Position numbers and translations under genes: made by a program
In this document: piece after piece, positions 4,160 through 60,709 of the stretch
How positions within the stretch are numbered: position 1 is the stretch's first letter
Layout of the letters: each line of letters opens with the position of its first letter
The notes under the pieces: generated by a model
What the model saw: the letters and a program-made list of their open reading frames with translations, nothing else
Database searches by the model: none
What the model was told of the DNA's origin: nothing
Origin: an uncultured Candidatus Saccharibacteria bacterium
GTDB taxonomy: Bacteria > Patescibacteriota > Saccharimonadia > Saccharimonadales > UBA10212
DNA length: 64,000 nucleotides
Direction of reading: 5' to 3'
Assembly (NCBI GenBank): GCA_964460855.1
Contig: CAYWQH010000001.1
Location: 123,868-187,867, forward strand

Positions 4160-4501
4160 TTAACGGGCGGCTTGGACCTTGCCCTTGTCCAGTTCCATTC
4201 CCAGCCACTTTTGGGCGCTTCTAGCGGTTTTCACTACCGGCACAGCCTCTAATAAGAACGCCCGGTAACTATGTACTTTTTTAACTTCTTTTTCTACGGC
4301 ATCGAAAAGGTCTACACGGCTGGACATACACATCATTACTTCATTATGCGTTTCTATGCTACCTAGCATAAGGTAATCGGTTTTTACGGCGAACTGTTTT
4401 GCGCAGCCAATTAATTTAGCTTCCAATAAGATGTTGGCAATAGTCTCGGCTTCTGCCTGGTCGGCACACGTTAGCCAAATTTGACAAAATTGTTGCGACA
4501 A
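4160..4501 (-). CDS. cutA: CutA-like divalent-cation tolerance protein
   Basis: 113 aa. It aligns by eye along E. coli CutA (IWLTCADQAEAETIANILLEAKLIGCA ... EVMMCMSS ... HSYRAFLLEAVPV ... KWL). Confidence 0.6.
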   Translation of the reverse strand: MSQQFCQIWLTCADQAEAETIANILLEAKLIGCAKQFAVKTDYLMLGSIETHNEVMMCMSSRVDLFDAVEKEVKKVHSYRAFLLEAVPVVKTARSAQKWLGMELDKGKVQAAR

Positions 4502-4542: not shown

Positions 4543-5025
4543 CTAGTTTTCTGGCGCTTTCTGAAAACTTAATCCAAGTTGGTTTTGCACTTTGGCAAAT
4601 GCAAATGCTTGTAACAGCGGTCCGATTTGGCCAATATTATGGTGGTTGGCAACTTCCGTTTCAGAAATTAAAGTCCGCTGGCCTGTCTTATCGTCAACTT
4701 TATAGCGGCGCTCCAAATATTTTACTTCGCCTGTATCAGTCCATATAAATTCGGGATGCAATGCTATGCCAGTAGCTTTATATGGCACGTTTACTAGTTC
4801 GATAGAATTAACGCTTTCCGCATCAGAACCAGCAATATGACGGGTTAAAACCATAATGTTAACAGGTTCATTGTATGAGTGCCAGGCTATTAGCAAATTG
4901 GCGCCATTTACATGCTCGCCGTCAAATATTTGGCTTATTTTTTTGCCCCAATTTTTTAATTCAAGCTGGTCGGCTTTTTTGGGCGGGCTGGATAAGACTT
5001 CTGGCCTTTCTCTTTGGACGCTCAT
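4543..5025 (-). CDS. Hypothetical protein (160 aa)
   Basis: The ORF overlaps the upstream RHH gene by 4 nt. No motif recognised. Confidence 0.55.
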   Translation of the reverse strand: MSVQRERPEVLSSPPKKADQLELKNWGKKISQIFDGEHVNGANLLIAWHSYNEPVNIMVLTRHIAGSDAESVNSIELVNVPYKATGIALHPEFIWTDTGEVKYLERRYKVDDKTGQRTLISETEVANHHNIGQIGPLLQAFAFAKVQNQLGLSFQKAPEN

Positions 5026-9439: not shown

Positions 9440-9979
9440 TCAGTTTCGCTCGCTGGTGGACTGGCGCGAAGCCACCAGCCGGTCCATGGCCTCCTCGTGG
9501 TTCTTGGCCATGCCCGTCTCAGTTGCAAGACGGATGTGGTTGATGCGAGCAGCGTCTTGCTGCTGCAGCAGGAACTCCGTTTCGTCGGCGCGCGTGGGAA
9601 ATTCCTTGGAATTCTCCATCAGCCAAGCCTCAAGCTCTTCGTCCAGAGTGTCCCGCCCAGCATCGAGTATGGCCACACTGTGGTACACGCCATGACCGGC
9701 GATGACCAGCACCCTGATGCCGCGCAGGGCGGCGTACAGGATGCGGGCCCGCCGCATTGGCAGACCCGGAATGTCCGGATCAACCGCCCACTCGGCATAG
9801 CGCAAGAAGTTGTCGAGGCGGTCAGTTGGACGGACGCCCAGAGCCTCGATCCCGTTGAAGAACCTCGTGAGGGAATCGATATAGCGCCGGCAGTCCCTGA
9901 TGAAGTTCTTCGGCTCTACTCTGTAGAGCTGCAGGACTTCCAGGTCCCGGTGATCCTCGAACTGTGCCTTATTGGTCAA
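9440..9979 (-). CDS. Hypothetical protein (179 aa), compositionally foreign GC3-rich cassette gene
   Basis: TTG start 6 nt after AAGGAG. All Lys codons are AAG and GAG/CTG/TTC/CGC dominate, whereas dnaK is AAA/GAA-rich. No motif recognised. Confidence 0.65.
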   Translation of the reverse strand: MTNKAQFEDHRDLEVLQLYRVEPKNFIRDCRRYIDSLTRFFNGIEALGVRPTDRLDNFLRYAEWAVDPDIPGLPMRRARILYAALRGIRVLVIAGHGVYHSVAILDAGRDTLDEELEAWLMENSKEFPTRADETEFLLQQQDAARINHIRLATETGMAKNHEEAMDRLVASRQSTSERN

Positions 9980-21902: not shown

Positions 21903-21930
21903 AAAAAACTCCACGCAAGTGGAGTTTTTT
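21903..21930. terminator. Bidirectional intrinsic terminator
   Basis: AAAAAA-actccac-gcaa-gtggagt-TTTTTT. Confidence 0.8.
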
Positions 21931-21934
21931 ATTT

Positions 21935-22105
21935 AAAGCTCACTTAGACCAAGCAGACCTAACATCAAAATAAATTTGATAGCGGTCTGCTTTTTCGGCG
22001 CATTACTGCGTCAAAAGCTCCAGAGCTCATTCACGGTACGTCTGTGTACCGTTCTTTCCGCGCTTCGCTTTTTCCTTGTACTGCATCCGAATCTAAGCGA
22101 GCTTT
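21935..22105 (-). ncRNA. Structured intergenic RNA element, copy A (171 nt), unnamed family; strand tentative
   Basis: A 14-bp closing helix (21935-48/22092-105) encloses three further helices: hairpin 21951-59/21984-92, helix TTCGG/CCGAA (21994-98/22087-91) and hairpin 22033-39/22046-52. The blocks GGCGCATTACTGCGTCA and TTCCTTGTACTGCATCC are shared with 28689-28860. The A x C mismatch becomes U-G on the minus strand. Confidence 0.6.
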
Positions 22106-22111
22106 GCGCGT

Positions 22112-22690
22112 TTAGCCGAGATCAATTAAGTGGCGTTTGGTGAGCCAGTGGACGCCCCAGGCTATAGCGCACAGCGTGCCGCTGGCAATTGCCACTAATA
22201 CGCTAAGGCCGGCTAAATCCGGCGTCCAACGGGGGCTGACAAAATCGAACTTATACAAATCGTCCGGCACCGGCTGCTGCTGGATGGCATGGCTGGTTAC
22301 GTACTGCTGAATGCATGGTACGCGGGTGCGCCCCGAAAACGCCGTAGAATTTTGCTGCTCGCAATAATGCTGGGCATCGGTGTAAATCTGGCTGTTTTGG
22401 GCATCAACTTTGGCTTTTTCGGCAGCCGTTAAGCGTTCGTAGCGGTACTTAAGTTGGATGGGCGGCCGGATAGCGTTTTTACCGCTGGCCGGGTCGGTGT
22501 TCATATGGCTGTAAATGTATTCGCGTAAGTTGCGCAGGGCCGTTTCTACATCGCCGTTATTTTTATCGGCCTCGTACACCTTGTTGCGCAGCTCAATCAT
22601 ATGCAAATTATTAGCCCGCAGCGCCGACACGGCAATAACCGAGCTCAGAATAAAGACCAGCAGCAGGATGTAGCGCATCGAGTATTTCAT
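22112..22690 (-). CDS. Membrane protein, hypothetical
   Basis: N-terminal signal/TM and C-terminal TM helix. The start was moved to the ATG at 22690. Confidence 0.55.
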   Translation of the reverse strand: MKYSMRYILLLVFILSSVIAVSALRANNLHMIELRNKVYEADKNNGDVETALRNLREYIYSHMNTDPASGKNAIRPPIQLKYRYERLTAAEKAKVDAQNSQIYTDAQHYCEQQNSTAFSGRTRVPCIQQYVTSHAIQQQPVPDDLYKFDFVSPRWTPDLAGLSVLVAIASGTLCAIAWGVHWLTKRHLIDLG

Positions 22691-22745
22691 AATCCTAATG
22701 TTAAGTTTAAAGTCGAAAGTTAAAAGTTTAAAGTAAAATAGCATT

Positions 22746-28648: not shown

Positions 28649-28688
28649 AAATAATTAGTTGAATAACCTATAGCAATTAGTCTATCAC

Positions 28689-28860
28689 GAACGCCTTCCG
28701 CACCGCCCCTTATAAAAATTGGAGCAAGTCCAGACTTTTTAAGTGGCTTTTGGCGCATTACTTCGTCAGGGTTTCCGCTACTCCTTCACCGTACATTCCC
28801 GTACGGCTCAGTCCGTTGCTCACCCCTTCCTTGTACTGCATCCAAATGCGAAACGCGTTC
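28689..28860 (-). ncRNA. Structured intergenic RNA element, copy B (172 nt), same family as 21935-22105; strand tentative
   Basis: Closing helix 28689-702/28847-860, helix TTTGG/CCAAA (28749-53/28842-46) and hairpin 28789-94/28801-06. Long blocks are identical to copy A, and paired positions show compensatory changes. Confidence 0.6.
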
Positions 28861-28869
28861 CAACGATGG

Positions 28870-30828
28870 CTATTTAATGCCGTCCCTTAACAATCCGCCC
28901 CACTCAACGAACGTAAAGCCGTTGCGGGCCGGTGCCGTAAAGTGCTGGGGGTTCAAGCTTACCGGCTGGTTCAGGCCTTCAGAGTCTAAGAATACCCTGA
29001 TGACGGTGTCAGGCGCCGGAGTTATATGCAGCGGCGCCAGTTCGTTCATTTGCCTTGTGGTCAGCCAAGTCAGTTTTACGTAGGGTGAGGTTGGAAGTTT
29101 TGCTTGCCAGAAAGCCATAAAATCAGTCTGCTCCTTGGCATTTAAGCCAAGCTGCGTCATTTGCATCCTAAGTGTAGGCAAAAGCTCTGATTGGCTTACA
29201 ACAACGCCGGTTTTGGAAACGTCTGGGTATATACCGTTGCCGTAGCCTTCCCAGAAAAGAGAACCGTAACTATGGCCCTGGTAATTTAGCTGGCCGCTAG
29301 GCTGGGCTAGAACGTTAAACCAGCCATTGCCGTAAAATGGATCGCTTTTAACTACCCGGGCATCAACTTCAACATTTACGTTAGTTGTAACTTTTGGATA
29401 CAAGTAAATAACTGGCTTGCCGCAACCGCCAACAACCGCAAAACGCGAATTTATCATCACCTGGTATTGTCCCAAGCCGTCTTTTACCAAAATAATAGCG
29501 TGTTTATCCAGGTACTGCTGGGCTGTCTGGCCAAGAATAAGATCGGTTCGGATACTGCCGTCAATATCTTTGGTTAGATCCACATACTCTTTATAAAATG
29601 TTGATTCAAAGGGTATTGAGCTTGATTTAGCCTGGTAAATATTATCGGACCCCGATTTTCCCGCAACCGCCAAATCACTATCTTTTACATTTAAGGCAAT
29701 TATATTTGAACTGCCTTCGCCGCACCCGGAAGGTTGCCGTATATAGTCATCTTTATTGGCAGAACCGTCACTCCAGTTAATGTTTGCCGTACTGAGAGTT
29801 TCTATTCCCTTTTTGGTGGTAGTAAAAGTTAAATTTGATCCAACACGGTAAATGACCGTGCGAAAATCCTGCCTTAATAATATATAGTAGCTTTGCTCTG
29901 TGACTGCATCTTTCTTAGAAACAACTTTGTAGATTTTGCCATTAGCGCCGGTTGCCGCTAGTGTTACTTCCGAGGTAGAGTTTACGTCTTTCTTGGTGGG
30001 GTCAAGGTTAACAGCACCGGCTGTAAAAGTATTAGGTTCCGGTGTCTCTAAAACGTTTGCAACGTTATTAAGTTCCAGCTTATCTTTTATGGCTAATTCA
30101 GGGATTTTCGTTGTCGTATCTTGCTTAACCCCTACTGCCAGTTTTGGGCCAACGTATTCACCTGTATCGTATTTGCCGGTTTTATCATCATATTTCGTAT
30201 ACCAGCCAAGGGACTGGTCTTTTATGATATACGTCGCGTCCGGTTTCTTGATGACTAAACCAGTGGAGCCGTCGAGCCCGAAAGCTATGTCTACAGTAAT
30301 TACCGGGTAGCCTTCTTTAGTCTTGCCAACCTGATAAAAAGTTACTGCGCCGTCTGCGGGATTTAGGTTATCGGGATCGTTAAATAGTTTTTGGTCGGGG
30401 AGTTTGGTGGCAGTTTTAGCCCAAACGATGCCGCTGGTGGCAGGCGATTGGTCGGCCGTGGTGCTGCTATTGGCGGTTTTATTGGAAGTAATGTGAGCGG
30501 GCTTCTCTTTTTTAATGAAATATAAGTAACCAGCCACGGCTGCCAGTATCAGTAAGACAATCAGCAAAAAGATTAATAACCACTTAATTTTGGCCCGCCG
30601 CGGGTTGCGGATCTGGCTCATCGAAGTCATAACCGGAAAATCGTCGGTTTTAGGCGTCGGATTAGCTGGGGGTTCGCTTGTTGGCTCAGTTTCGACAGCC
30701 GGTTTAGGGTGCTCCGAAGGTGCTACGGTCGGGGAAGGCTCGGTTTCAGCCGCATCAACCCGCTCAATTAACTTATCTTTTTCGTGTTCGTGGTTGCCGG
30801 TTTCCGGCTCATTCTTAGGCGGTTCCAT
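28870..30828 (-). CDS. Membrane-anchored extracellular protein (652 aa)
   Basis: Pro/Glu-rich N-tail, a TM helix and a large ectodomain. No motif recognised. Confidence 0.6.
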   Translation of the reverse strand: MEPPKNEPETGNHEHEKDKLIERVDAAETEPSPTVAPSEHPKPAVETEPTSEPPANPTPKTDDFPVMTSMSQIRNPRRAKIKWLLIFLLIVLLILAAVAGYLYFIKKEKPAHITSNKTANSSTTADQSPATSGIVWAKTATKLPDQKLFNDPDNLNPADGAVTFYQVGKTKEGYPVITVDIAFGLDGSTGLVIKKPDATYIIKDQSLGWYTKYDDKTGKYDTGEYVGPKLAVGVKQDTTTKIPELAIKDKLELNNVANVLETPEPNTFTAGAVNLDPTKKDVNSTSEVTLAATGANGKIYKVVSKKDAVTEQSYYILLRQDFRTVIYRVGSNLTFTTTKKGIETLSTANINWSDGSANKDDYIRQPSGCGEGSSNIIALNVKDSDLAVAGKSGSDNIYQAKSSSIPFESTFYKEYVDLTKDIDGSIRTDLILGQTAQQYLDKHAIILVKDGLGQYQVMINSRFAVVGGCGKPVIYLYPKVTTNVNVEVDARVVKSDPFYGNGWFNVLAQPSGQLNYQGHSYGSLFWEGYGNGIYPDVSKTGVVVSQSELLPTLRMQMTQLGLNAKEQTDFMAFWQAKLPTSPYVKLTWLTTRQMNELAPLHITPAPDTVIRVFLDSEGLNQPVSLNPQHFTAPARNGFTFVEWGGLLRDGIK

Positions 30829-43514: not shown

Positions 43515-43658
43515 TGCTAACAAAACCCGGTCCTCAAACCGCTCACGCGCGGATAGTGCCTGCCCTGAGCTGCACGACGAGTCTAGCATCTCCGGCAGGC
43601 ACTAAACCGGCTCCGCTAGGGTAAAGGGTAAGTTTTCGGCCCAGGTTTCGTTAGCATT
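43513..43658. repeat. Structured inverted-repeat element filling the convergent intergenic gap (146 nt)
   Basis: The 15-bp outer helix aatgctaacaaaacc/ggtttcgttagcatt abuts both stop codons. The inner perfect 10-bp helix is agtgcctgcc/ggcaggcact (43555-64/43594-603). Confidence 0.5.
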
Positions 43659-44956
43659 TAGCCTTTGGTTTGCCTATTTACATTTGCAGCACGCTTATTA
43701 ATAAATGAATCGCGGGACTGCTTATACTTAATCTCAGTTCCGAGGCGGTGCACATATTGGGCCAAGTTTTCCGGTTGCTTCGTTAAAACTTTTTTAGTGG
43801 AAGGTACCATAACATTTTTGCCGGTTTGGCGGTTAACTGTATGTTTGCAATCGACGCAGTGTAATATTCCTTTGTCGTATAAATTTTCTGGAAGGTCGAC
43901 TATGTTATTGCAGTTGGGGCAAGTGACGCATTTAAGCATGTCTTGTTTGGTGAAGTAACCTAATTTATCTGAGATTCTTTGGCCGCCCAGTACTGTATCG
44001 CAGCCAAAGAATTCGGTGCCGGCTTCCATAACGCCGGCGGCCGCGATCGATTCGGCCAGACTTTCCAAGTCCTGCCAGGTGCCGTCGAGTTTCCGCTTGT
44101 AACTCGAAACTATATCGCGGCGCAGCTGTTCACTGAGCCCCGGCCAATTTTCAGGCGGCTGGTACAGTGCTATAGAGTCTAAACCGCTCATCAGCGATTC
44201 CAATAATTCCGGGTGGCTGAGAACGAACCGGTAGCTGTCAGGCCCCTGCTTTGGTGCCAGGCGGTCGGCCAACTGGTAATCGGCAATGCCAAGGACTACC
44301 GGACTGTTTAAAATGTCGATGGTCGAGGCGTCTTGCGCCAGTGCGATATTAAATTCCGATTGGTAAGTCTGTGCTACGTCAGCGGCGCTGAGGCCGTCGA
44401 TGCTGCGCGAAAAAAGCCGCAGTCCGCCTTGGCCGTCGAATACGCTGACCCGCAAAAAACCGCGCCGCAGTTTTGGGTTCCGGCCTAAAAGTTTTAAATC
44501 GTCGTCGCTGAACAAATCAGAACCGCACAGAGAAAACGTTACTAAAGTTGCTTCTATGCCTTGCTCTAAAATACGTCTTTGGAGCAATGATTCCTCATAT
44601 TCTGCTTCGGCTACTCTTATATATGCACTTAAATTAGGGTTTTGGGCGGCGCGTTCGCGGGCATATGCTACACCGTTGCTATGTAATTCCAGCCAATCTA
44701 CCGGCAAGCCTTGTTCGTCGTGGCAAACCATTTGGTCGCCGGCCAGCCAAAAATCCAAATCGGTCCGCACCTGGCCGTCCATCATTTCACTGAGGTACAG
44801 GCTTTCCTGGCGAAAAACATATTCCCGGGCCCGGCTGTCGCTCAAACCTTCGTGCAATTCACGCAAAGTCCGCGCCGAATCGGCCTGGCGTTTTAAATTA
44901 AGGTTTTCAGTTACCGTTTCCAAAAAAATACCCCTGCTTTTAAGCAAGGGCAACAA
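43658..44956 (-). CDS. Hypothetical protein with a C-terminal zinc ribbon (CxxC...CxxC)
   Basis: CVTCPNCNNIVDLPENLYDKGILHCVDCKH. The start is uncertain: TTG in the track, with an alternative TTG at METVTEN preceded by GGGG. Confidence 0.55.
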   Translation of the reverse strand: MLPLLKSRGIFLETVTENLNLKRQADSARTLRELHEGLSDSRAREYVFRQESLYLSEMMDGQVRTDLDFWLAGDQMVCHDEQGLPVDWLELHSNGVAYARERAAQNPNLSAYIRVAEAEYEESLLQRRILEQGIEATLVTFSLCGSDLFSDDDLKLLGRNPKLRRGFLRVSVFDGQGGLRLFSRSIDGLSAADVAQTYQSEFNIALAQDASTIDILNSPVVLGIADYQLADRLAPKQGPDSYRFVLSHPELLESLMSGLDSIALYQPPENWPGLSEQLRRDIVSSYKRKLDGTWQDLESLAESIAAAGVMEAGTEFFGCDTVLGGQRISDKLGYFTKQDMLKCVTCPNCNNIVDLPENLYDKGILHCVDCKHTVNRQTGKNVMVPSTKKVLTKQPENLAQYVHRLGTEIKYKQSRDSFINKRAANVNRQTKG

Positions 44957-45097
44957 TAACTGGCGGCTCTTGCTCGAGAGACTTTACAACTGTTTCGGAC
45001 TTTAACCGTTGCGGCACAGCGTTAGAATTTCACTAACTTCCAGTTTGGTTTATTAAAGTGCTTTCATGATAGCACAAGCCATGACAAAATATTGGTT

Positions 45098-46192
45098 ATG
45101 TCAAATGCCGAGGTATCAACAGCCGAGCACCCGCTCCAGCAGCAAGTTAATGAATTGTACATGCCTTGGAGCAAGGAATTCGGCGCTAATGGCAAGAGTT
45201 TTAAAGCTTTGCCTTATGAACCCGGCAAATATCCTGGCCAGAGAGTTGAGGAATTTATTTCCCGGGCCCGCCCGTACGAAGCTATTACGCCAGAAGTATT
45301 CCGGGAAATCCAGCAATTTACTTTAGGGCATTCCCTGGGCTATACCGCTTTAACAGCATATTGGCGCGGCGGCCAATTCGCCGAAGCGTTTAATCCGTAC
45401 GCCGAAGAAGTACATGAGTTGCTTAAAGCTAAAAAATCCGTTGGCGTGTTTACTATGCACTGCGAATATAAAGATACGATACTAGCCGGTGGCGCGTTGA
45501 ATTTGGCATTAAGCAAGCACCCTGGTTTGCCAGCTTATCCTTTAGACGTTTACAGTTGGACATTTATGAATAAAGCTATGGCTTATACCGGCGTTATGCG
45601 CAGCAACATTCCACGATATTTGTTGGCCCGCCGGGAACCTAAAGCAATTGCAAGCAAACTGTCGCACGCTACTAACATCGTATGGGTATCGCCGGATACG
45701 CCCAGCGCTGACCGGTTCAATATACCTGAAGAAATAAGCAATTATTTAAATATTAATGCCATGCGCGATTTTAAAACGGCTACCCCAGGCCATGGTGTGC
45801 TTTTGGCTGCGGCGCTGCACGGCAGCCAAACGAAACTGAGAGCTGACGATGATACATATGTACAACCCGAGGTACGTCCAGGCTCATTCGGCCTAATGCG
45901 GCAAGTTGATGCGGTACTCCCAGTAGTAATAGTTAAACAAGGAAAATCAAGGATTGCCGATTGGGCCGTTGGCGAACTAATGCCTAATAGCAAAAATAAG
46001 AAAGACAGCTTACCGCAAGTTAACTCCATTAACACCGAGCTGGCCAAGATGCTAAACGAATTAACGGGTAGGGACGTAGAATACACCGAGTTAGTATCAG
46101 ATGGAGACAATATTGTTCGGCGCATCGCGCAAACTGCTCTAAAAGGCGCGATCATGCCAATTATGATCCAGCAACAAAAGCGAGCTACTTAA
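45098..46192 (+). CDS. Hypothetical protein, possible HX4D acyltransferase-like
   Basis: 364 aa. FTMHCEYKDTIL contains an H-x4-D motif like PlsC/GPAT block I. This is weak, motif-only evidence. Confidence 0.5.
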   Translation: MSNAEVSTAEHPLQQQVNELYMPWSKEFGANGKSFKALPYEPGKYPGQRVEEFISRARPYEAITPEVFREIQQFTLGHSLGYTALTAYWRGGQFAEAFNPYAEEVHELLKAKKSVGVFTMHCEYKDTILAGGALNLALSKHPGLPAYPLDVYSWTFMNKAMAYTGVMRSNIPRYLLARREPKAIASKLSHATNIVWVSPDTPSADRFNIPEEISNYLNINAMRDFKTATPGHGVLLAAALHGSQTKLRADDDTYVQPEVRPGSFGLMRQVDAVLPVVIVKQGKSRIADWAVGELMPNSKNKKDSLPQVNSINTELAKMLNELTGRDVEYTELVSDGDNIVRRIAQTALKGAIMPIMIQQQKRAT

Positions 46193-55419: not shown

Positions 55420-55459
55420 TTAAAGAGTTATACATATTTTTATTTGATAGAATATTTTT

Positions 55460-55741
55460 ATGAGTACTACTAAATTAGCCGACGGCGTAGTCCACAAAAT
55501 GCCGGCCGATTTGCGCAAAGTTTTAGAAGCCAGCGAAGAAGCCAGCATGCTTTGGGCCGACATTACACCATTGGCGCGTAACGAATGGATTTGCTGGGTC
55601 GTAGAAGCCAAGCGGCTGGACACCCGCAAGAACCGCGTCGATCGGGTCCGCGACGAATTAATCCAAGGCATGCGCCGCCCCTGCTGCTGGATCGGCTGCA
55701 TCCACCGCGTCAAAAACGGCAAAGCCGTTTTCGCTAAATAG
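55460..55741 (+). CDS. YdeI/OmpD-associated family protein
   Basis: MPADLRKVLE....LWADITPLARNEWICWVVEAKRLDTRKNRV pattern. Confidence 0.6.
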   Translation: MSTTKLADGVVHKMPADLRKVLEASEEASMLWADITPLARNEWICWVVEAKRLDTRKNRVDRVRDELIQGMRRPCCWIGCIHRVKNGKAVFAK

Positions 55742-55749
55742 CGCACGAA

Positions 55750-56142
55750 TTAGCTAGACCAATTTTTTAATAATTTTCGAACTTCGTCATCCCTTTCATA
55801 CAGGATTTCTGAATTTCTAAATACCTCTTTTTGAAATTGGTCATTATTTTCGTTAGCTAGTTTTCGAAGCCGTTCAATTGAGCGCAATACAATATTGATA
55901 TGTTGCCCTTCTAAATCATAAAAGTATTCGCCTTTTGTAAATTTTTCTTCAATTTTTAACGGCAATATTATCAATATGTCTATATCAGAGTTTGGTTTAT
56001 TGGTACCCTTTGCTACCGAACCATAAAGAAGTATCGCTGATACATGGCTATTAATGTTCTTGTACCAAAGCTCTTCGCATAGTTTTTGCTTTATAAAGTT
56101 CCCGGCGAGATCTATAGCTTCAATTTTAGTAATAGCCGACAT
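55750..56142 (-). CDS. Minimal nucleotidyltransferase (MNT-like) domain protein
   Basis: LLYGSVAKGTNKPNSDIDILII fits the GS-x9-12-DxD NTase motif. Confidence 0.65.
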   Translation of the reverse strand: MSAITKIEAIDLAGNFIKQKLCEELWYKNINSHVSAILLYGSVAKGTNKPNSDIDILIILPLKIEEKFTKGEYFYDLEGQHINIVLRSIERLRKLANENNDQFQKEVFRNSEILYERDDEVRKLLKNWSS

Positions 56143-56413: not shown

Positions 56414-59400
56414 CTAAGAAGAACCATAGGCTGACAGGTTGCCATCGTTATAGCCGGTACCGGTGGTCGTGTAGGTTGCTGGCAGCGATGTAAGATTTGT
56501 TTGGCTGCTAGTGTAGGCCTTATACGTGCTGCCGGTACTGTCGCGGAATTTAACCGTACCTCCGGTGCCCAACACCGCCATCCAGTATTTAGTGCCGGCG
56601 GCCAAAGGCGCCGGTGTTACCGTAATGGTGTTCCAGCTGTTGGCAACCGGCGCGCTTATCGAACCGCTGGCCATTAAACTGCCCGGCTTGCCGTTATTGT
56701 CGGAATAAATCCCAACACTCAGGTTAGTGGCGGTTGAGCCGCTGGCTATATAATAGCTCATTTTGCTGATTGTTCCGCTGGCAGCGGCAGTTGTTTGGAA
56801 TGTTTCGGCCTGCCCGCCGGTATCGCTATCGGCATGGGTTTGGACCGTTTGGCTTCCGATCAACACTTGCGAACCATTGTTTACCGTAACTGTAATCGTC
56901 GCCGAAGTAGTTTGCTTGCCCGAAGAGTCGGTGGCGACGGCAGTTAAGCTGTGGGTTCCGTTAGTGGCCGAAGTAGTTGCCCAGTTTACCTGGTACGGCG
57001 CGGTAGTATCTGCCGTACTGAGATTTGCCCCGTCAAGTTTAAACTGGACATTGGCTATGGCCACATCGTCGCTGGCATTGGCCGAAACATTTATCGAGCC
57101 GGATACTGTGGCGTTGTTGGCCGGTGCAGTTAAGTTGACTGTTGGCGGGCTTAAATCATTAAGCACATTCACGATTATCGAAGTATTTGCCGTATTGCCG
57201 GAAGTGTCGGTGGCGACGGCCGAGATGGTATGCGGGCCGTTGGAATAGGCTGTGCTGTCCCAGCTAATTTGATACGGAGTAGCCGTACAAACCGCCCCAT
57301 AACTCACGCCGTCAACCTGGAAATAAACCGTATCGACGGACACGTTGTCGGTGGCCGACGCAATTAACTGCACATTGGTACCGCTAACAGTAGCATTGGC
57401 GGCCGGGCTGGTTATGGTAACTGTTGGCGGTGTGGTGTCCGGTTTGGGGGCATTGGATACAGTTACTGAAACCGAAGAACTGGATGTGTTGCCAATGGCG
57501 TCGCGGGCCACGGCAGTAATGGTATGAGTGCCATTGCTTGCAGTTGCCGTATCCCAATTGTAGGTATACGGCGAGGCGGTAATTTCAGCTCCCAAGTTGG
57601 CGCCGTCGATCTTGAACTGCACGCCGGCAATACCGTTGGTGTCGCTGGTATCGGCCGAAATAGCAGTAACGCCCGAAGCGGTTGAGCCGTCAGACGGAGC
57701 AGTAATTGAAACTCCCGGGTTAGTGTTGTCGGTGGTAAATGTCACCGCCGTGGATGTGGCCGTGTTGCCGGCCCCGTCTTTGGCGATGGCCGTGACAGTA
57801 TGCTGGCCGTCGCCCAGGGCCAGGGAATTCCAGCTGAAGTTATATGGCGCACTTACCAGCGCCGGGCCGGCATTTACGCCATCAACTTGGAACTGGACAC
57901 TGGCAACACCGATATTATCGTTGGCCACGGCCGAAAAAGTCAGATTGCCGTGCTGCAGCGAACCGGCCGCTGGGTTGGTAACCGATACGTTCGGCGCGGT
58001 AGTATCCGGCGCCGGCGCGCCTATGGCGACGGCTTTATACATAACCCGGGCGTGGTGGTGGGCGCAGTCCGAATCATCTTGTTCGTCAAAATAAACCACG
58101 TCTATGACGTTGGGGTTATTGTCGCGCGACGGGTCAAAACGGATTGATGCCGAACCGTCGGTTCCGGGCTCGCAGGTGTCGCCGGACGACGGCGCCGTTT
58201 TACTTTGCGGGTCGAGGGTGGCGTAAGCCCCCCAACTGGCGCCTAAGCCGCCAAGCTGGTACTGGTAGCCGAATTGGACGTTTATATCATGGCCCAGGAA
58301 AACGAAATTAGCATTAGAGGATGAAGTATAGTTTTGCGGCGTATGGGCGAACCAGGTGCCATTCGGGTTGCTGGCGCCGCCGCTGCCGCCGGGCGGCGTG
58401 TTGTCGGTCCATAAACCATTAGCGTCGCGGTAGCGCATCCTGACATAGTCGGTGCCGTTGGGCGTACCGTCCATAAATACTACAATTGGCCGGCCAGAAG
58501 TATCAACCGTTAAGCCAGGTCCTTGGTCGCTATCGCCGTTATTAAGCACATTGGAATCGCCCAAAGTAACCTGTTCCGGAATGCTCCAGCTACCGCCGGT
58601 ATATTTCGAGTAATCTATTTCCGAATGCGTAGCCAAGGAGTTATTCATCCAGGCCAGGTTAAAGCTGCCGTCCAAGGCGGTTACCATTGAGGGATGCATG
58701 ATGTTGGTGCCAATGGCAATGGAGGCCGGGGTCGTCCAGGAACCGCCGGCGTGGCTGGTAAATTGCAGTGAATTAGCACTGCCGCTGGTAGCGTAAACGA
58801 TTAACGGCTGGTCATTAGAATCTAAACTTAAAGCAACCTGCCCGGTCCTCGGCCAGCTGATACCGTCAGTTACGCTGGCCCCGCTGCCTACCGCTGTGCG
58901 GCCGCCCCAGGTATCGGTTAGGGTTGAGTAAGTCTGGTAATAAACCGTGCCGGTTAAGCCTTCCACATATGCCATATGGATGGTGCCCGCCCGGTCTAAC
59001 CGGCTGTCCGGGCTTTGCATCATGGCCGTAGCGTTATAGGTACAATCGGTGGTGCTGGTTGAAGTTGGCCGGTGCGACGCATCCTGCTCGGTAAAAGCAT
59101 TCGGAGCGTAAGGGTTGCCCGGCTGCGAGCCGCTACCCTTCCAGATATGGATAGTGCCGTTGCCGCCGCCCTGGCAGGCATTGTCGTCGGAGGCGATTAC
59201 ATAAACCACATTATTGGCAGTGCGGATTACCTGGCGGTCGGAAGCGTCAATAAAACCGTTGCCGACCGCTACGCCCTGGGTAGAAGCATCCGGCGACGGC
59301 GTTGGCGAACTGACATTAAATGTATTGCTAGTTGTAACGTTAATCGGGATGGAGGTGGCCGTGTTGCCCGAAGTGTCGCGGGCCACGGCCGTCAAAATAT

Positions 59401-60709
59401 GGCTGCCGTTTATTACAGAAGAAGTGTCCCAGTTTATAGCGTAGGGCGCGGTGGTGTCTTCGTTTTGGAGGTTTACGCCGTCCAGCTTGAACTGCACGCC
59501 GGCTACGGCGGCATTGTCGCTGGCCGAGGCGTTAACCGAAACCACGCCGGTCAGGGCCGAACCGTCGGCCGGCGCCGTAATATTGACGCTTGGCGCGGTG
59601 GTGTCGCAGGCCGCGGTTTGGGCGCTTAACGTTGCCTGGTTGGAATGGTTGTTGGCGGCATCGTAGGCGTCTACACCCAGCGAGTATGACGTGCCGCAAG
59701 TTAAGCCACTAATCGTGCCAGTAAGTCCGGTAAACGTGCCGGCCGCCGAAGTTCCGTTATATAAGGTATAGCCAGTTACGGCCGTGTCGTCGGTGGAGGC
59801 CGTCCAGGAAGTTGAAATGGTAGTTGCCGTGTTGCCGGTAACCGCGAAGTTCGTAGGGGCAGTTGGCGGCGTTATGTCCGGCGCGGTATTGAGCTGGGCT
59901 TTATAAGTTACGACCGTGCCGGCGTACGGGCTGGCGGCGCTGGACAGCGCCGGGGCAGTTTGGTTGCCGATGGCGCTGACCAATTTATACTGCTGCCATT
60001 GCTTTTTATATACCGTGCCTAAGTTGGATGTCAGCTGGGTCGGGAAAGCCGTAAAGCCGCTGCCGGCCGTGAACGTTTCGTTGGTGGAGCCATCGCCAAA
60101 TGAGCCGATTACCAATTCGGTGTCCTGGGTGGTGGCGGCAGTGGTGCCGGTAGCCAGCGCGGCTGTATTGCCCGTGGCGGTCGCTTTTTGGTCGACGCGG
60201 TTAGTGGCGGCAATACCGTTCCATTCGGTGGCCAGCGCCAGGCGCATGCTGGCCGCGGCCGAATAGGTAACTCTAATAGTGTCGCCAGCGGCCAAGCCGT
60301 TAGTCATATAACCGGATAAAACCGTTGTTATAGTGCCGTTGCTGGAATTGGCGCTGATACTGTCCTGCGTATAAATATTGCCTTTGGAGTCGGCAACCGA
60401 TGCTGCCGACACTCCGGAATAGTTGTTGCCAGCAAAAATTATAACCGTGTTGCCCTGGGCGACGCCGGCGGCCGGCACGGTAAGTACTAAAGTATTGGCG
60501 GCCGTGTAAGATTGCGCCGTTGCCGAGGCTACTTCTTTAACGAAGCTGATGTTGCCAGCGGCATTGGTATCTTTCTTTTGAATTAAAAATACGGCGGCTA
60601 GCAGCACGCAGATAGTAATTGTAATGGCCAGCCTAAGATATTTTGTTAAGGCCCTGTTAGCTGTTAAATTATCCAGGAAATTCCGAAGTCCAGTACCGAA
60701 GCGCATCAA
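56414..60709 (-). CDS. Giant surface protein (1431 aa): anchor, lectin-like domain, FN3, five Ig-like repeats, BNR/propeller-like region
   Basis: N-terminal TM anchor and an FN3-like segment (aa 280-367). Ig-like repeats carry the recurring motif ...V.F..DG..L....T.APY...W.T....NG.H..TAVA.D..GN..... Confidence 0.85.
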   Translation of the reverse strand: MMRFGTGLRNFLDNLTANRALTKYLRLAITITICVLLAAVFLIQKKDTNAAGNISFVKEVASATAQSYTAANTLVLTVPAAGVAQGNTVIIFAGNNYSGVSAASVADSKGNIYTQDSISANSSNGTITTVLSGYMTNGLAAGDTIRVTYSAAASMRLALATEWNGIAATNRVDQKATATGNTAALATGTTAATTQDTELVIGSFGDGSTNETFTAGSGFTAFPTQLTSNLGTVYKKQWQQYKLVSAIGNQTAPALSSAASPYAGTVVTYKAQLNTAPDITPPTAPTNFAVTGNTATTISTSWTASTDDTAVTGYTLYNGTSAAGTFTGLTGTISGLTCGTSYSLGVDAYDAANNHSNQATLSAQTAACDTTAPSVNITAPADGSALTGVVSVNASASDNAAVAGVQFKLDGVNLQNEDTTAPYAINWDTSSVINGSHILTAVARDTSGNTATSIPINVTTSNTFNVSSPTPSPDASTQGVAVGNGFIDASDRQVIRTANNVVYVIASDDNACQGGGNGTIHIWKGSGSQPGNPYAPNAFTEQDASHRPTSTSTTDCTYNATAMMQSPDSRLDRAGTIHMAYVEGLTGTVYYQTYSTLTDTWGGRTAVGSGASVTDGISWPRTGQVALSLDSNDQPLIVYATSGSANSLQFTSHAGGSWTTPASIAIGTNIMHPSMVTALDGSFNLAWMNNSLATHSEIDYSKYTGGSWSIPEQVTLGDSNVLNNGDSDQGPGLTVDTSGRPIVVFMDGTPNGTDYVRMRYRDANGLWTDNTPPGGSGGASNPNGTWFAHTPQNYTSSSNANFVFLGHDINVQFGYQYQLGGLGASWGAYATLDPQSKTAPSSGDTCEPGTDGSASIRFDPSRDNNPNVIDVVYFDEQDDSDCAHHHARVMYKAVAIGAPAPDTTAPNVSVTNPAAGSLQHGNLTFSAVANDNIGVASVQFQVDGVNAGPALVSAPYNFSWNSLALGDGQHTVTAIAKDGAGNTATSTAVTFTTDNTNPGVSITAPSDGSTASGVTAISADTSDTNGIAGVQFKIDGANLGAEITASPYTYNWDTATASNGTHTITAVARDAIGNTSSSSVSVTVSNAPKPDTTPPTVTITSPAANATVSGTNVQLIASATDNVSVDTVYFQVDGVSYGAVCTATPYQISWDSTAYSNGPHTISAVATDTSGNTANTSIIVNVLNDLSPPTVNLTAPANNATVSGSINVSANASDDVAIANVQFKLDGANLSTADTTAPYQVNWATTSATNGTHSLTAVATDSSGKQTTSATITVTVNNGSQVLIGSQTVQTHADSDTGGQAETFQTTAAASGTISKMSYYIASGSTATNLSVGIYSDNNGKPGSLMASGSISAPVANSWNTITVTPAPLAAGTKYWMAVLGTGGTVKFRDSTGSTYKAYTSSQTNLTSLPATYTTTGTGYNDGNLSAYGSS
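56876..58009 (-). repeat. Four tandem Ig-like coding repeats (about 93-95 aa each) inside the giant gene; a fifth lies at 59324-59605
   Basis: Repeat boundaries were derived by counting residues 901-1278 and 369-462 of the ORF. Confidence 0.7.

Follow-up and report, generated by a model that had tools for sequence, protein, structure and literature searches.

We analyzed a 64-kb stretch of DNA from an uncultured Candidatus Saccharibacteria bacterium (64,000 nucleotides of contig CAYWQH010000001.1, hereafter the window), in which two intergenic spacers are occupied by copies of an unnamed structured element, designated copy A and copy B. The two copies are members of a large family of foldback repeats, non-coding and so far uncatalogued, comparable in kind to the REP/REPIN, miniature inverted-repeat transposable element (MITE), and attC types. 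An earlier note, made from the letters of the window alone, had taken the pair for a conserved structured unit of about 171 nt. The structure of A and B proved to be real, but the unit that is conserved is an arm of ~66-118 nt, whereas the closing helix and second hairpin are specific to the copy or the lineage.

Both copies are read on the minus strand, where copy A starts 6 nt past the stop codon of open reading frame (ORF) 22112-22744 and copy B starts 9 nt past that of ORF 28870-30828. The products of both ORFs have transmembrane-like segments. Downstream of copy A there is a separate terminator, whereas copy B runs into the 5' region of the following gene. The terminator, already pointed out in the earlier note, is an A/T-flanked hairpin that a simple terminator scan did not list, and it is part of the locus rather than of the element. 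The element and its surroundings were made up as follows.

21935-22105, minus strand: copy A, whole element, 171 nt (closing helix, conserved arm, and second hairpin)
22091-22105, minus strand: copy A closing helix, 5' arm (AAAGCTCGCTTAGAT), pairing with 21935-21949
21935-21949, minus strand: copy A closing helix, 3' arm (GTCTAAGTGAGCTTT)
21995-22090, minus strand: copy A conserved arm, with conserved blocks at 22072-22088 and 21997-22013
21951-21992, minus strand: copy A second hairpin, variable, a feature of the Saccharibacteria-type two-arm form
28689-28860, minus strand: copy B, whole element, 172 nt
28846-28860, minus strand: copy B closing helix, 5' arm (GAACGCGTTTCGCAT), pairing with 28689-28703
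28689-28703, minus strand: copy B closing helix, 3' arm (GTGCGGAAGGCGTTC)
28750-28845, minus strand: copy B conserved arm, with P1 (TTGG/CCAA), core, P2, and tip hairpin 28788-28807
28705-28747, minus strand: copy B second hairpin, variable
21903-21930, no strand assigned: bidirectional intrinsic terminator with A-tract/T-tract flanks (-17 to -18 kcal/mol), adjoining copy A

The blocks that A and B were said to share were recovered exactly, and at these two places only. The 17-mer TTCCTTGTACTGCATCC had its sole window sites at 22072-22088 and 28827-28843 (chance expectation 0.06 in 64 kb), and GGCGCATTACTnCGTCA occurred without mismatch only at 21997-22013 and 28752-28768 (chance expectation 0.64), two further window matches with three mismatches being noise. 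When the minus strands were aligned, the common blocks were GGATGCAGTACAAGGAA, the CGTAC..GTACGGTGAA hairpin region, and TGACGnAGTAATGCGCC. Folding confirmed the proposed common architecture, in which both copies form the same Y-shaped fold of a 14-15-bp closing helix, a long conserved arm, and a second hairpin, with closing helices and second hairpins unrelated in sequence between the two. In copy A, the arm runs through P1 (TCGG/CCGA), a bulged A, H2 (TGCA/TGCG), a G.A mismatch, and H3 (TAC/GTA), followed by an AAGG/ACGnn loop, P2, purine-rich loops, and the tip hairpin at 22033-22052. The compensatory changes listed in the earlier note were all present: P1 is TTCGG/CCGAA in copy A and TTTGG/CCAAA in copy B, and in the GTAC tip hairpin of the arm a G:C pair at 22035:22050 of copy A corresponds to C:G at 28790:28805 of copy B.

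The minus strand folded more stably than the plus strand in copy A (-75.2 versus -58.1 kcal/mol; z = -8.65, 200 shuffles) as well as in copy B (-70.1 versus -47.4 kcal/mol; z = -6.79, 200 shuffles), in agreement with the minus-strand reading proposed before. A covariance model scored copy A at 98 bits on 21984-22101 and copy B at 104.2 bits on 28739-28856, and found no third copy in the 64-kb window, even with the filters off. The best filter-off match (9.8 bits, 45366-45422) lies inside an ORF and was rejected. Automatic boundaries taken from minimum free energy folds with long flanks were over-extended and were discarded.

No promoter-like site was found between stop codon and element for either window copy. 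Each copy is in sense orientation, 6-9 nt past a stop codon and with no promoter signal between; most likely the two are co-transcribed, giving stem-loops of high stability. Copy A would then be a stem-loop in the 3' untranslated region ahead of the terminator, and copy B an intercistronic stem-loop ahead of the gene for a 707-aa protein; either might block exonucleases or be a site of processing. Neither is an intrinsic terminator itself, for which a G+C-rich stem followed by a U-tract is expected, and no terminal U-tract was present on A or B. The element may also interfere with genome assembly, and it apparently breaks short-read assemblies: contigs from the source samples that carry the genes on either side of copy B (the ends of L126 and L127 and the start of L130) stop inside the tip hairpin of the element (window ~28788-28803), and L126 and L130, from one sample, have a mere ~16-nt overlap within it.

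To describe the family, one genome per species was scanned with the pattern GATGCAGTACAAGG-N40-70-GTAATGC. At least 119 loci were matched, one of which (L009) was a chance match, and the family ranged over at least eight bacterial phyla. Outside the window, the search for further copies thus disclosed a large family. There were at least 42 loci from Saccharibacteria and at least six from other bacteria of the candidate phyla radiation (CPR), at least 24 from Undibacterium/Oxalobacteraceae, at least 10 from Methylotenera/Methylophilales, at least 12 from a single Verrucomicrobia metagenome-assembled genome (MAG), and at least eight from Clostridia. Among the matches listed were also Nitrosomonas eutropha, Thalassolituus, other Burkholderiales, and unclassified Pseudomonadota, together with Bacteroidota, Sphaerochaeta (Spirochaetota), a Coriobacteriaceae, and a Limnocylindrales MAG. 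BLAST added replicons of Cupriavidus, Ralstonia, Mitsuaria, Comamonas, and Variovorax. Cultured carriers include Undibacterium, Nitrosomonas eutropha, Cupriavidus, and Ralstonia. Within phyla the distribution was patchy.

The copies fell into short forms of 66-73 nt, mainly from Undibacterium, Clostridia, Bacteroidaceae, and Sphaerochaeta, and long forms of 86-91 nt, for example from Saccharibacteria, Methylotenera, and Verrucomicrobia. A second hairpin with a separate closing helix, as in the window, was seen only in some Saccharibacteria. Closing helices ranged from 14 to 45 bp. No true copy was found among 2.9 million viral contigs, where the sole pattern match lay inside an ORF of 592 aa, and none was found in a phage collection or in E. 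coli genomes; a phage or plasmid vector was rejected on these grounds.

On the motif strand, the consensus begins with P1, a bulged A, H2 (UGCA/UGCG, with a U.G wobble), a G.A mismatch, and H3 (UAC/GUA). It continues with the loop AA/GNN, a G-C pair, tandem G.A/A.G (or C.A) mismatches, P2, purine-rich loops, and the tip hairpin. The conserved structure with compensatory changes, which had been proposed from two copies, is now backed by 70-73 sequences. In a MAFFT alignment of 70 long-form copies that was not fitted to the structure (32 pairs), 88.2% of cells could pair, compared with 70.4% after shuffling, and double changes occupied 423 cells compared with 137. The covariation score was 0.455 versus 0.157 in shuffled alignments, a value reached by none of 500 shuffles, and it was at most 0.071 in slid controls.

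The search pattern had held H2 and H3 fixed, and divergent copies were recovered from the same loci by the covariance model. In these copies, H3 was CCC/GGG, UGC/GCA, CAC/GUG, or CGC/GCG instead of UAC/GUA, and H2 was GCAAA/UUUGC or GCCUCU/AGAGGC. With the divergent copies added, compensatory double changes were present in 15 of the 16 core pairs and 96.3% of cells paired, in an alignment that is fitted to the model and so favours the structure. Unchanging across the family were the bulged A, the G.A mismatch, and the AGG/AC loop with its G-C pair, the loop being written AGG(A/C) / (G/A)AC.

The folded strand is the 'GATGCAG' strand, which is the minus strand of the window. In 101 of 120 copies this strand had a more stable fold than the complement, the mean difference being 6.4 kcal/mol. 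Its variable helices contained 223 internal G.U pairs but just 46 AxC single mismatches (short form: 53 and 1), counts that include related copies and are not independent events. Orthologous parE-parC copies across Undibacterium species likewise showed changes from G-C to G.U on the motif strand. The bias across the family also supports the minus-strand reading of the two window copies. The GC skew of the motif strand was negative at 77 loci and positive at 47, a weak tendency to the C-rich strand, and copies in co-directional gene pairs were mostly antisense. The skew and the antisense excess may reflect a replication-related orientation bias or selection against sense insertions.

Several copies were present per genome, and tandem arrays occurred at several loci. 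The neighbours were assorted housekeeping genes, with no protein family recurring within about 4 kb of the copies, and the orientation relative to neighbouring genes was mixed. The position 6-9 nt past the stop codons of genes with transmembrane-like products, correctly described for the window, is therefore not a property of the family. Sense copies were, in addition to A and B, those in a Cupriavidus operon, at a site upstream of rpmA in two genomes, and in a Thalassolituus MAG, where two copies (locus L084, 6808-6924 and 7143-7259, plus strand) lie in spacers of a (tRNA-Val, tRNA-Asp) x3 operon; the second of these has lost the 3' core block. Among short-form copies, 20 of 25 were antisense and abutted, on their 3' side, the stop codon of a gene on the opposite strand; in Undibacterium such copies occupy operons that include parE-parC, prfB-lysS, and queA-tgt. 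Antisense copies were also found in the complete Wolfebacteria genome CP011209, where two copies (locus L032, 2027-2145 and 2462-2581, minus strand) fill the atpB-atpE and atpE-atpF spacers. A third copy lies ~1.7 kb from this pair. The spacers were mostly tandem or convergent, and only three copies lay between divergent genes.

In its placements the element behaves as a dispersed repeat, and the data exclude a gene-specific cis-regulator. A riboswitch or ribosomal-protein leader is expected in sense orientation upstream of a coherent set of genes, whereas here the orientation was mixed and the neighbours were unrelated. No upstream promoter motif was shared among the Undibacterium loci, at which the element was kept at orthologous positions across species.

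One Verrucomicrobia MAG showed a recent burst, with 13 near-identical copies at unrelated loci that have a common terminal repeat of 17-20 bp and no consistent target duplication. Three of its loci (L034, L059, and L066) had the same 3' flank, TATAGTGTATTAAATTGAAAAGGGC, which is similar to the variant 5' arm that other copies of the MAG have, and L034 and L062 had 11-nt direct repeats as flanks; these flanks suggest nested or partly duplicated insertions. A copy from Saccharibacteria (L055) was bordered on both sides by the 31-nt direct repeat CTCAGCTTGCAAGCAGGCCAACGCGGTGCGA (4396-4426 and 4569-4599), which seems to be what is left of an upstream copy, either in tandem or partly deleted.

The two window sites were polymorphic for the element. 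In a syntenic relative of the window genome (contig L121, in which the ortholog of the 652-aa protein is 49% identical), both sites were empty, and the covariance model found no copy in the contig. The spacer at site B was 39 nt in the relative compared with 221 nt in the window. At site A, the stop codon of the relative was directly followed by the terminator, where the window has the stop codon, 6 nt, the element, 4 nt, and the terminator. The termini changed as well among copies that had kept their interior: closing helices were unrelated among copies with interiors at least 85% identical (within subfamilies), and second hairpins had been exchanged between subfamilies. The closing helix is thus not inherited together with the interior. 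Just downstream of copy B, a small hairpin in the 5' region of the 707-aa gene (~28664-28679, minus strand) is conserved in the relative (9873-9888) with a compensatory change, CTAG..CTAG there and ATAG..CTAT in the window, and marks the orthologous flank.

The earlier note had assigned the element to no named RNA class, and a search with the 4227 models of Rfam 15, which include ribozymes, riboswitches, 6S, SRP, tmRNA, RNase P, Y RNA, HEARO, and IS605-orfB, bore this out. No model matched at the motif in A, B, 18 diverse loci, or the Cupriavidus copy, and for A and B even the matches at E up to 10 were chance matches far below threshold. The best of the Rfam matches, to Chlorobi-1 (E = 0.002, 20 bits against a threshold of 50), covered the adjacent terminator and the second hairpin and was rejected. 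Sequence and keyword searches found no description of the element in the literature searched. The possibility that it is the fossil of a coding sequence, or a small ORF, was ruled out: the core reads ATG CAG TAC AAG, but downstream frames and stops differ, no reading frame is conserved, and the ATG is lost in some divergent copies.

Several resemblances to known motifs were also dropped. A k-turn was rejected for four extra nucleotides on the non-bulged strand, a loop E / sarcin-ricin motif for an H3 that covaries as a Watson-Crick helix, and helix II of 5S rRNA for lack of fit. The likeness to domain V of group II introns is limited to the Saccharibacteria-type tip (GAGCCGUA..UACGGU). A CsrA site (RUACARGGA) does not agree with the third base after GG, which is C in ~40% of copies, nor with the location of the motif outside a hairpin loop, and with a dif/Xer site GCGCAT is the sole common part.

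We consider the element to be probably mobile now or recently, and our preferred explanation, to which we assign a probability of about 0.45, is a mobile foldback element, non-autonomous, with a core that a putative partner reads on the folded single strand. The mobility mechanism, partner factor, and mRNA effects that we infer would be as follows. Selection would preserve the fold of the 'GATGCAG' strand as a rod whose helices are free in sequence and which carries a few fixed irregularities, namely the bulged A, the G.A mismatch, the AGG(A/C) / (G/A)AC loop, and the G-C pair. A trans-acting factor would dock on this asymmetric core, reading it on a folded single strand of RNA or DNA, and would copy or move the element. 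The long closing helix, specific to each copy, would rejoin the two flanks, and insertion into a tight intergenic spacer could thereby be tolerated. Because the element fills spacers of the essential atp, parE-parC, prfB-lysS, and tRNA operons, it likely affects mRNA processing.

Several observations weigh against this explanation. The empty sites come from a distant relative only (49% protein identity), at which insertion is indistinguishable from deletion, and two metagenome scans yielded no empty site in a close relative. No transposase (Y1 included), integrase, or reverse-transcriptase Pfam domain was found among the 60 ORFs of the window, which is housekeeping DNA, and no recurrent protein near the copies offered itself as a mobilising enzyme. 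Neither target-site duplication nor conserved termini were found across the family, and the usual logic of MITEs is inapplicable for this reason. The purine-rich loops are RNA-like in look. Finally, the same core extends from CPR bacteria as far as Betaproteobacteria, and orthologous loci of different Undibacterium species have kept the element; a functional RNA fits this better than typical selfish repeats do, because the latter are lineage-specific.

The main rival is accordingly a multi-copy functional non-coding RNA domain whose core binds a cellular protein or ligand, a serious proposal that we nevertheless regard as rather unlikely. Read-through transcripts processed at the closing helix would yield such an RNA, or it would be made from promoters of its own, and its dispersal would be the duplication of a gene family. 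Strong covariation around invariant unpaired purines is what such a domain would display, as are a core conserved across phyla and orthologous retention in Undibacterium, where G-C pairs have turned into G.U on the motif strand. The sense copies in the (tRNA-Val, tRNA-Asp) x3 operon, where tRNA processing would free the RNA, and those upstream of rpmA in two genomes also fit. However, many antisense copies fill spacers of essential operons entirely, leaving no room for a promoter, and the copies have no promoter or terminator in common. A housekeeping RNA would not be expected to show 13 near-identical dispersed copies in one MAG, or orthologous sites that are empty, and the patchy distribution within phyla also argues against one.

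An element acting in cis on the mRNA, as a stabilising stem-loop in 3' untranslated regions or between cistrons, an RNase III-type site, or a means of translational coupling, would work as a hairpin in either orientation, and we consider it improbable as the selected function. The window copies, 6-9 nt past a stop codon, are almost certainly co-transcribed, the preference for tandem and convergent spacers over divergent ones is as expected for such a role, and closing helices of 14-45 bp would be plausible substrates for a double-strand-specific nuclease. Yet the associated genes have no common function, and in both Undibacterium and the atp operon of Wolfebacteria the strand that the G.U pairs mark is antisense to the mRNA. 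A hairpin for stability alone is unlikely: it would have no need of an invariant asymmetric core, let alone one shared across phyla, and the strand under selection often runs antisense to the mRNA. A new self-cleaving or otherwise catalytic RNA with the conserved loops as its active site, which would be suggested only by analogy with small ribozymes (a small invariant core in freely covarying helices, multi-copy and patchy), is very improbable given that no Rfam 15 ribozyme model matched at E up to 10, that no pseudoknot or tertiary contact is indicated, and that the 2.9 million viral contigs held no true copy.

A widespread, multi-copy structured element with textbook-quality covariation that is absent from Rfam 15 points to a gap in the catalogue. 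We propose only tentatively, and with considerable doubt, that the family is a new class of cross-phylum structured element, being either a protein-free mobile hairpin or a multi-copy trans-acting non-coding RNA with a conserved protein partner. As a mobile hairpin, it could pass through a folded intermediate of RNA or single-stranded DNA, with a host-encoded or novel enzyme reading the structure as IntI reads attC. If the family is such a class, a widespread element has been missed by RNA and repeat catalogues alike. Interspersed repeats normally retain their ends while the interior drifts. The present family reverses this, keeping the core while helices and termini change, which implies a conserved partner that recognises shape; once found, the partner could reveal a new mechanism of mobilisation or a new RNA-protein system. 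Few mobile elements are known from Saccharibacteria and other CPR bacteria.

Other features of the window were noted. An AdoCbl-II (cobalamin) riboswitch aptamer at 44981-45059 on the minus strand (49.4 bits, threshold 36.5) was the only Rfam family to reach its gathering threshold in the window, and lies just upstream of an ORF of 432 aa without Pfam match (43658-44956, minus strand). At 55420-56142 (minus strand), a nucleotidyltransferase ORF (Polbeta/NTP_transf_2, 130 aa) adjoins a 108-aa ORF without Pfam match, and the pair looks like an MNT-type toxin-antitoxin module. A 1431-aa protein encoded at 56414-60709 (minus strand) has repeated bacterial Ig-like domains (Big_7 x5, Big_3_3, Big_13, and fn3) and is probably a surface adhesin.

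Among the closest known systems are REP/BIME elements and REPINs, which are mobilised by RAYT (Y1 HUH) transposases. The likenesses are that both consist of short non-coding imperfect palindromes in many copies per genome, placed in intergenic spacers at the 3' ends of genes and inside operons in both orientations, with recognition of a hairpin on one strand and long vertical persistence at orthologous sites. Multiple intergenic copies in both orientations that persist at orthologous loci were indeed found here. REPs, however, are 20-40 nt long and have a GTAG head and a lineage-specific sequence, whereas the present family has an internal asymmetric core shared across phyla, with freely covarying helices. 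The GTAG (GTRG) head was not enriched: 5% of copies had it no more than 25 nt 5' of the core, compared with 8% in shuffles. REP-bearing genomes are expected to encode a cognate RAYT, usually flanked by the repeats, and no RAYT gene was seen near any copy. REP hairpins can stabilise upstream mRNA once transcribed.

Bacterial MITEs whose RNA folds into hairpins (Correia/NEMIS, ERIC/IRU, and Rickettsia palindromic elements) resemble the family as non-coding foldback repeats of 100-200 bp, and also in their bursts of near-identical copies (seen here in one MAG), their co-transcription with neighbours, and their toleration in tight spacers. In classical MITEs, which derive from DDE transposons, the terminal inverted repeats are conserved and the target site is duplicated, whereas the interior drifts. 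The present family lacks both of these classical marks: its termini vary even where interiors are near-identical, its interior is conserved and covarying, and no duplication accompanies it. We know of no MITE family that spans phyla. Hairpins of the phage T7 type that are cut by RNase III are similar as long intercistronic stem-loops with a conserved internal loop, within one transcript, but they are sense-only and belong to one phage, whereas the present family is dispersed in both orientations and absent from the phage collections searched.

Integron attC sites are alike in lying directly behind stop codons, in conserving structure over sequence, in their similar length range, and in having fixed extrahelical or mismatched bases in a variable imperfect palindrome of which one strand folds correctly, a configuration that the present family also displays. 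The family differs in having no R''/R' boxes at the foot of the palindrome, no arrays of single-gene cassettes, and no integrase, although intI usually adjoins such arrays. R'' (RYYYAAC) and R' (GTTRRRY) boxes were found in 10% and 7% of copies, compared with 6% and 10% in shuffles, and none of 116 copies had the two together on either strand; the neighbours are housekeeping operons (atp, parE-parC, prfB-lysS, and the tRNA operon), and no integrase domain occurs among the 60 ORFs of the window. Interspersed structured palindromic repeats are thus a kind of element already known. What is new in this family, which matches none that has been catalogued, is an internal strand-specific core that is kept across phyla between variable termini.

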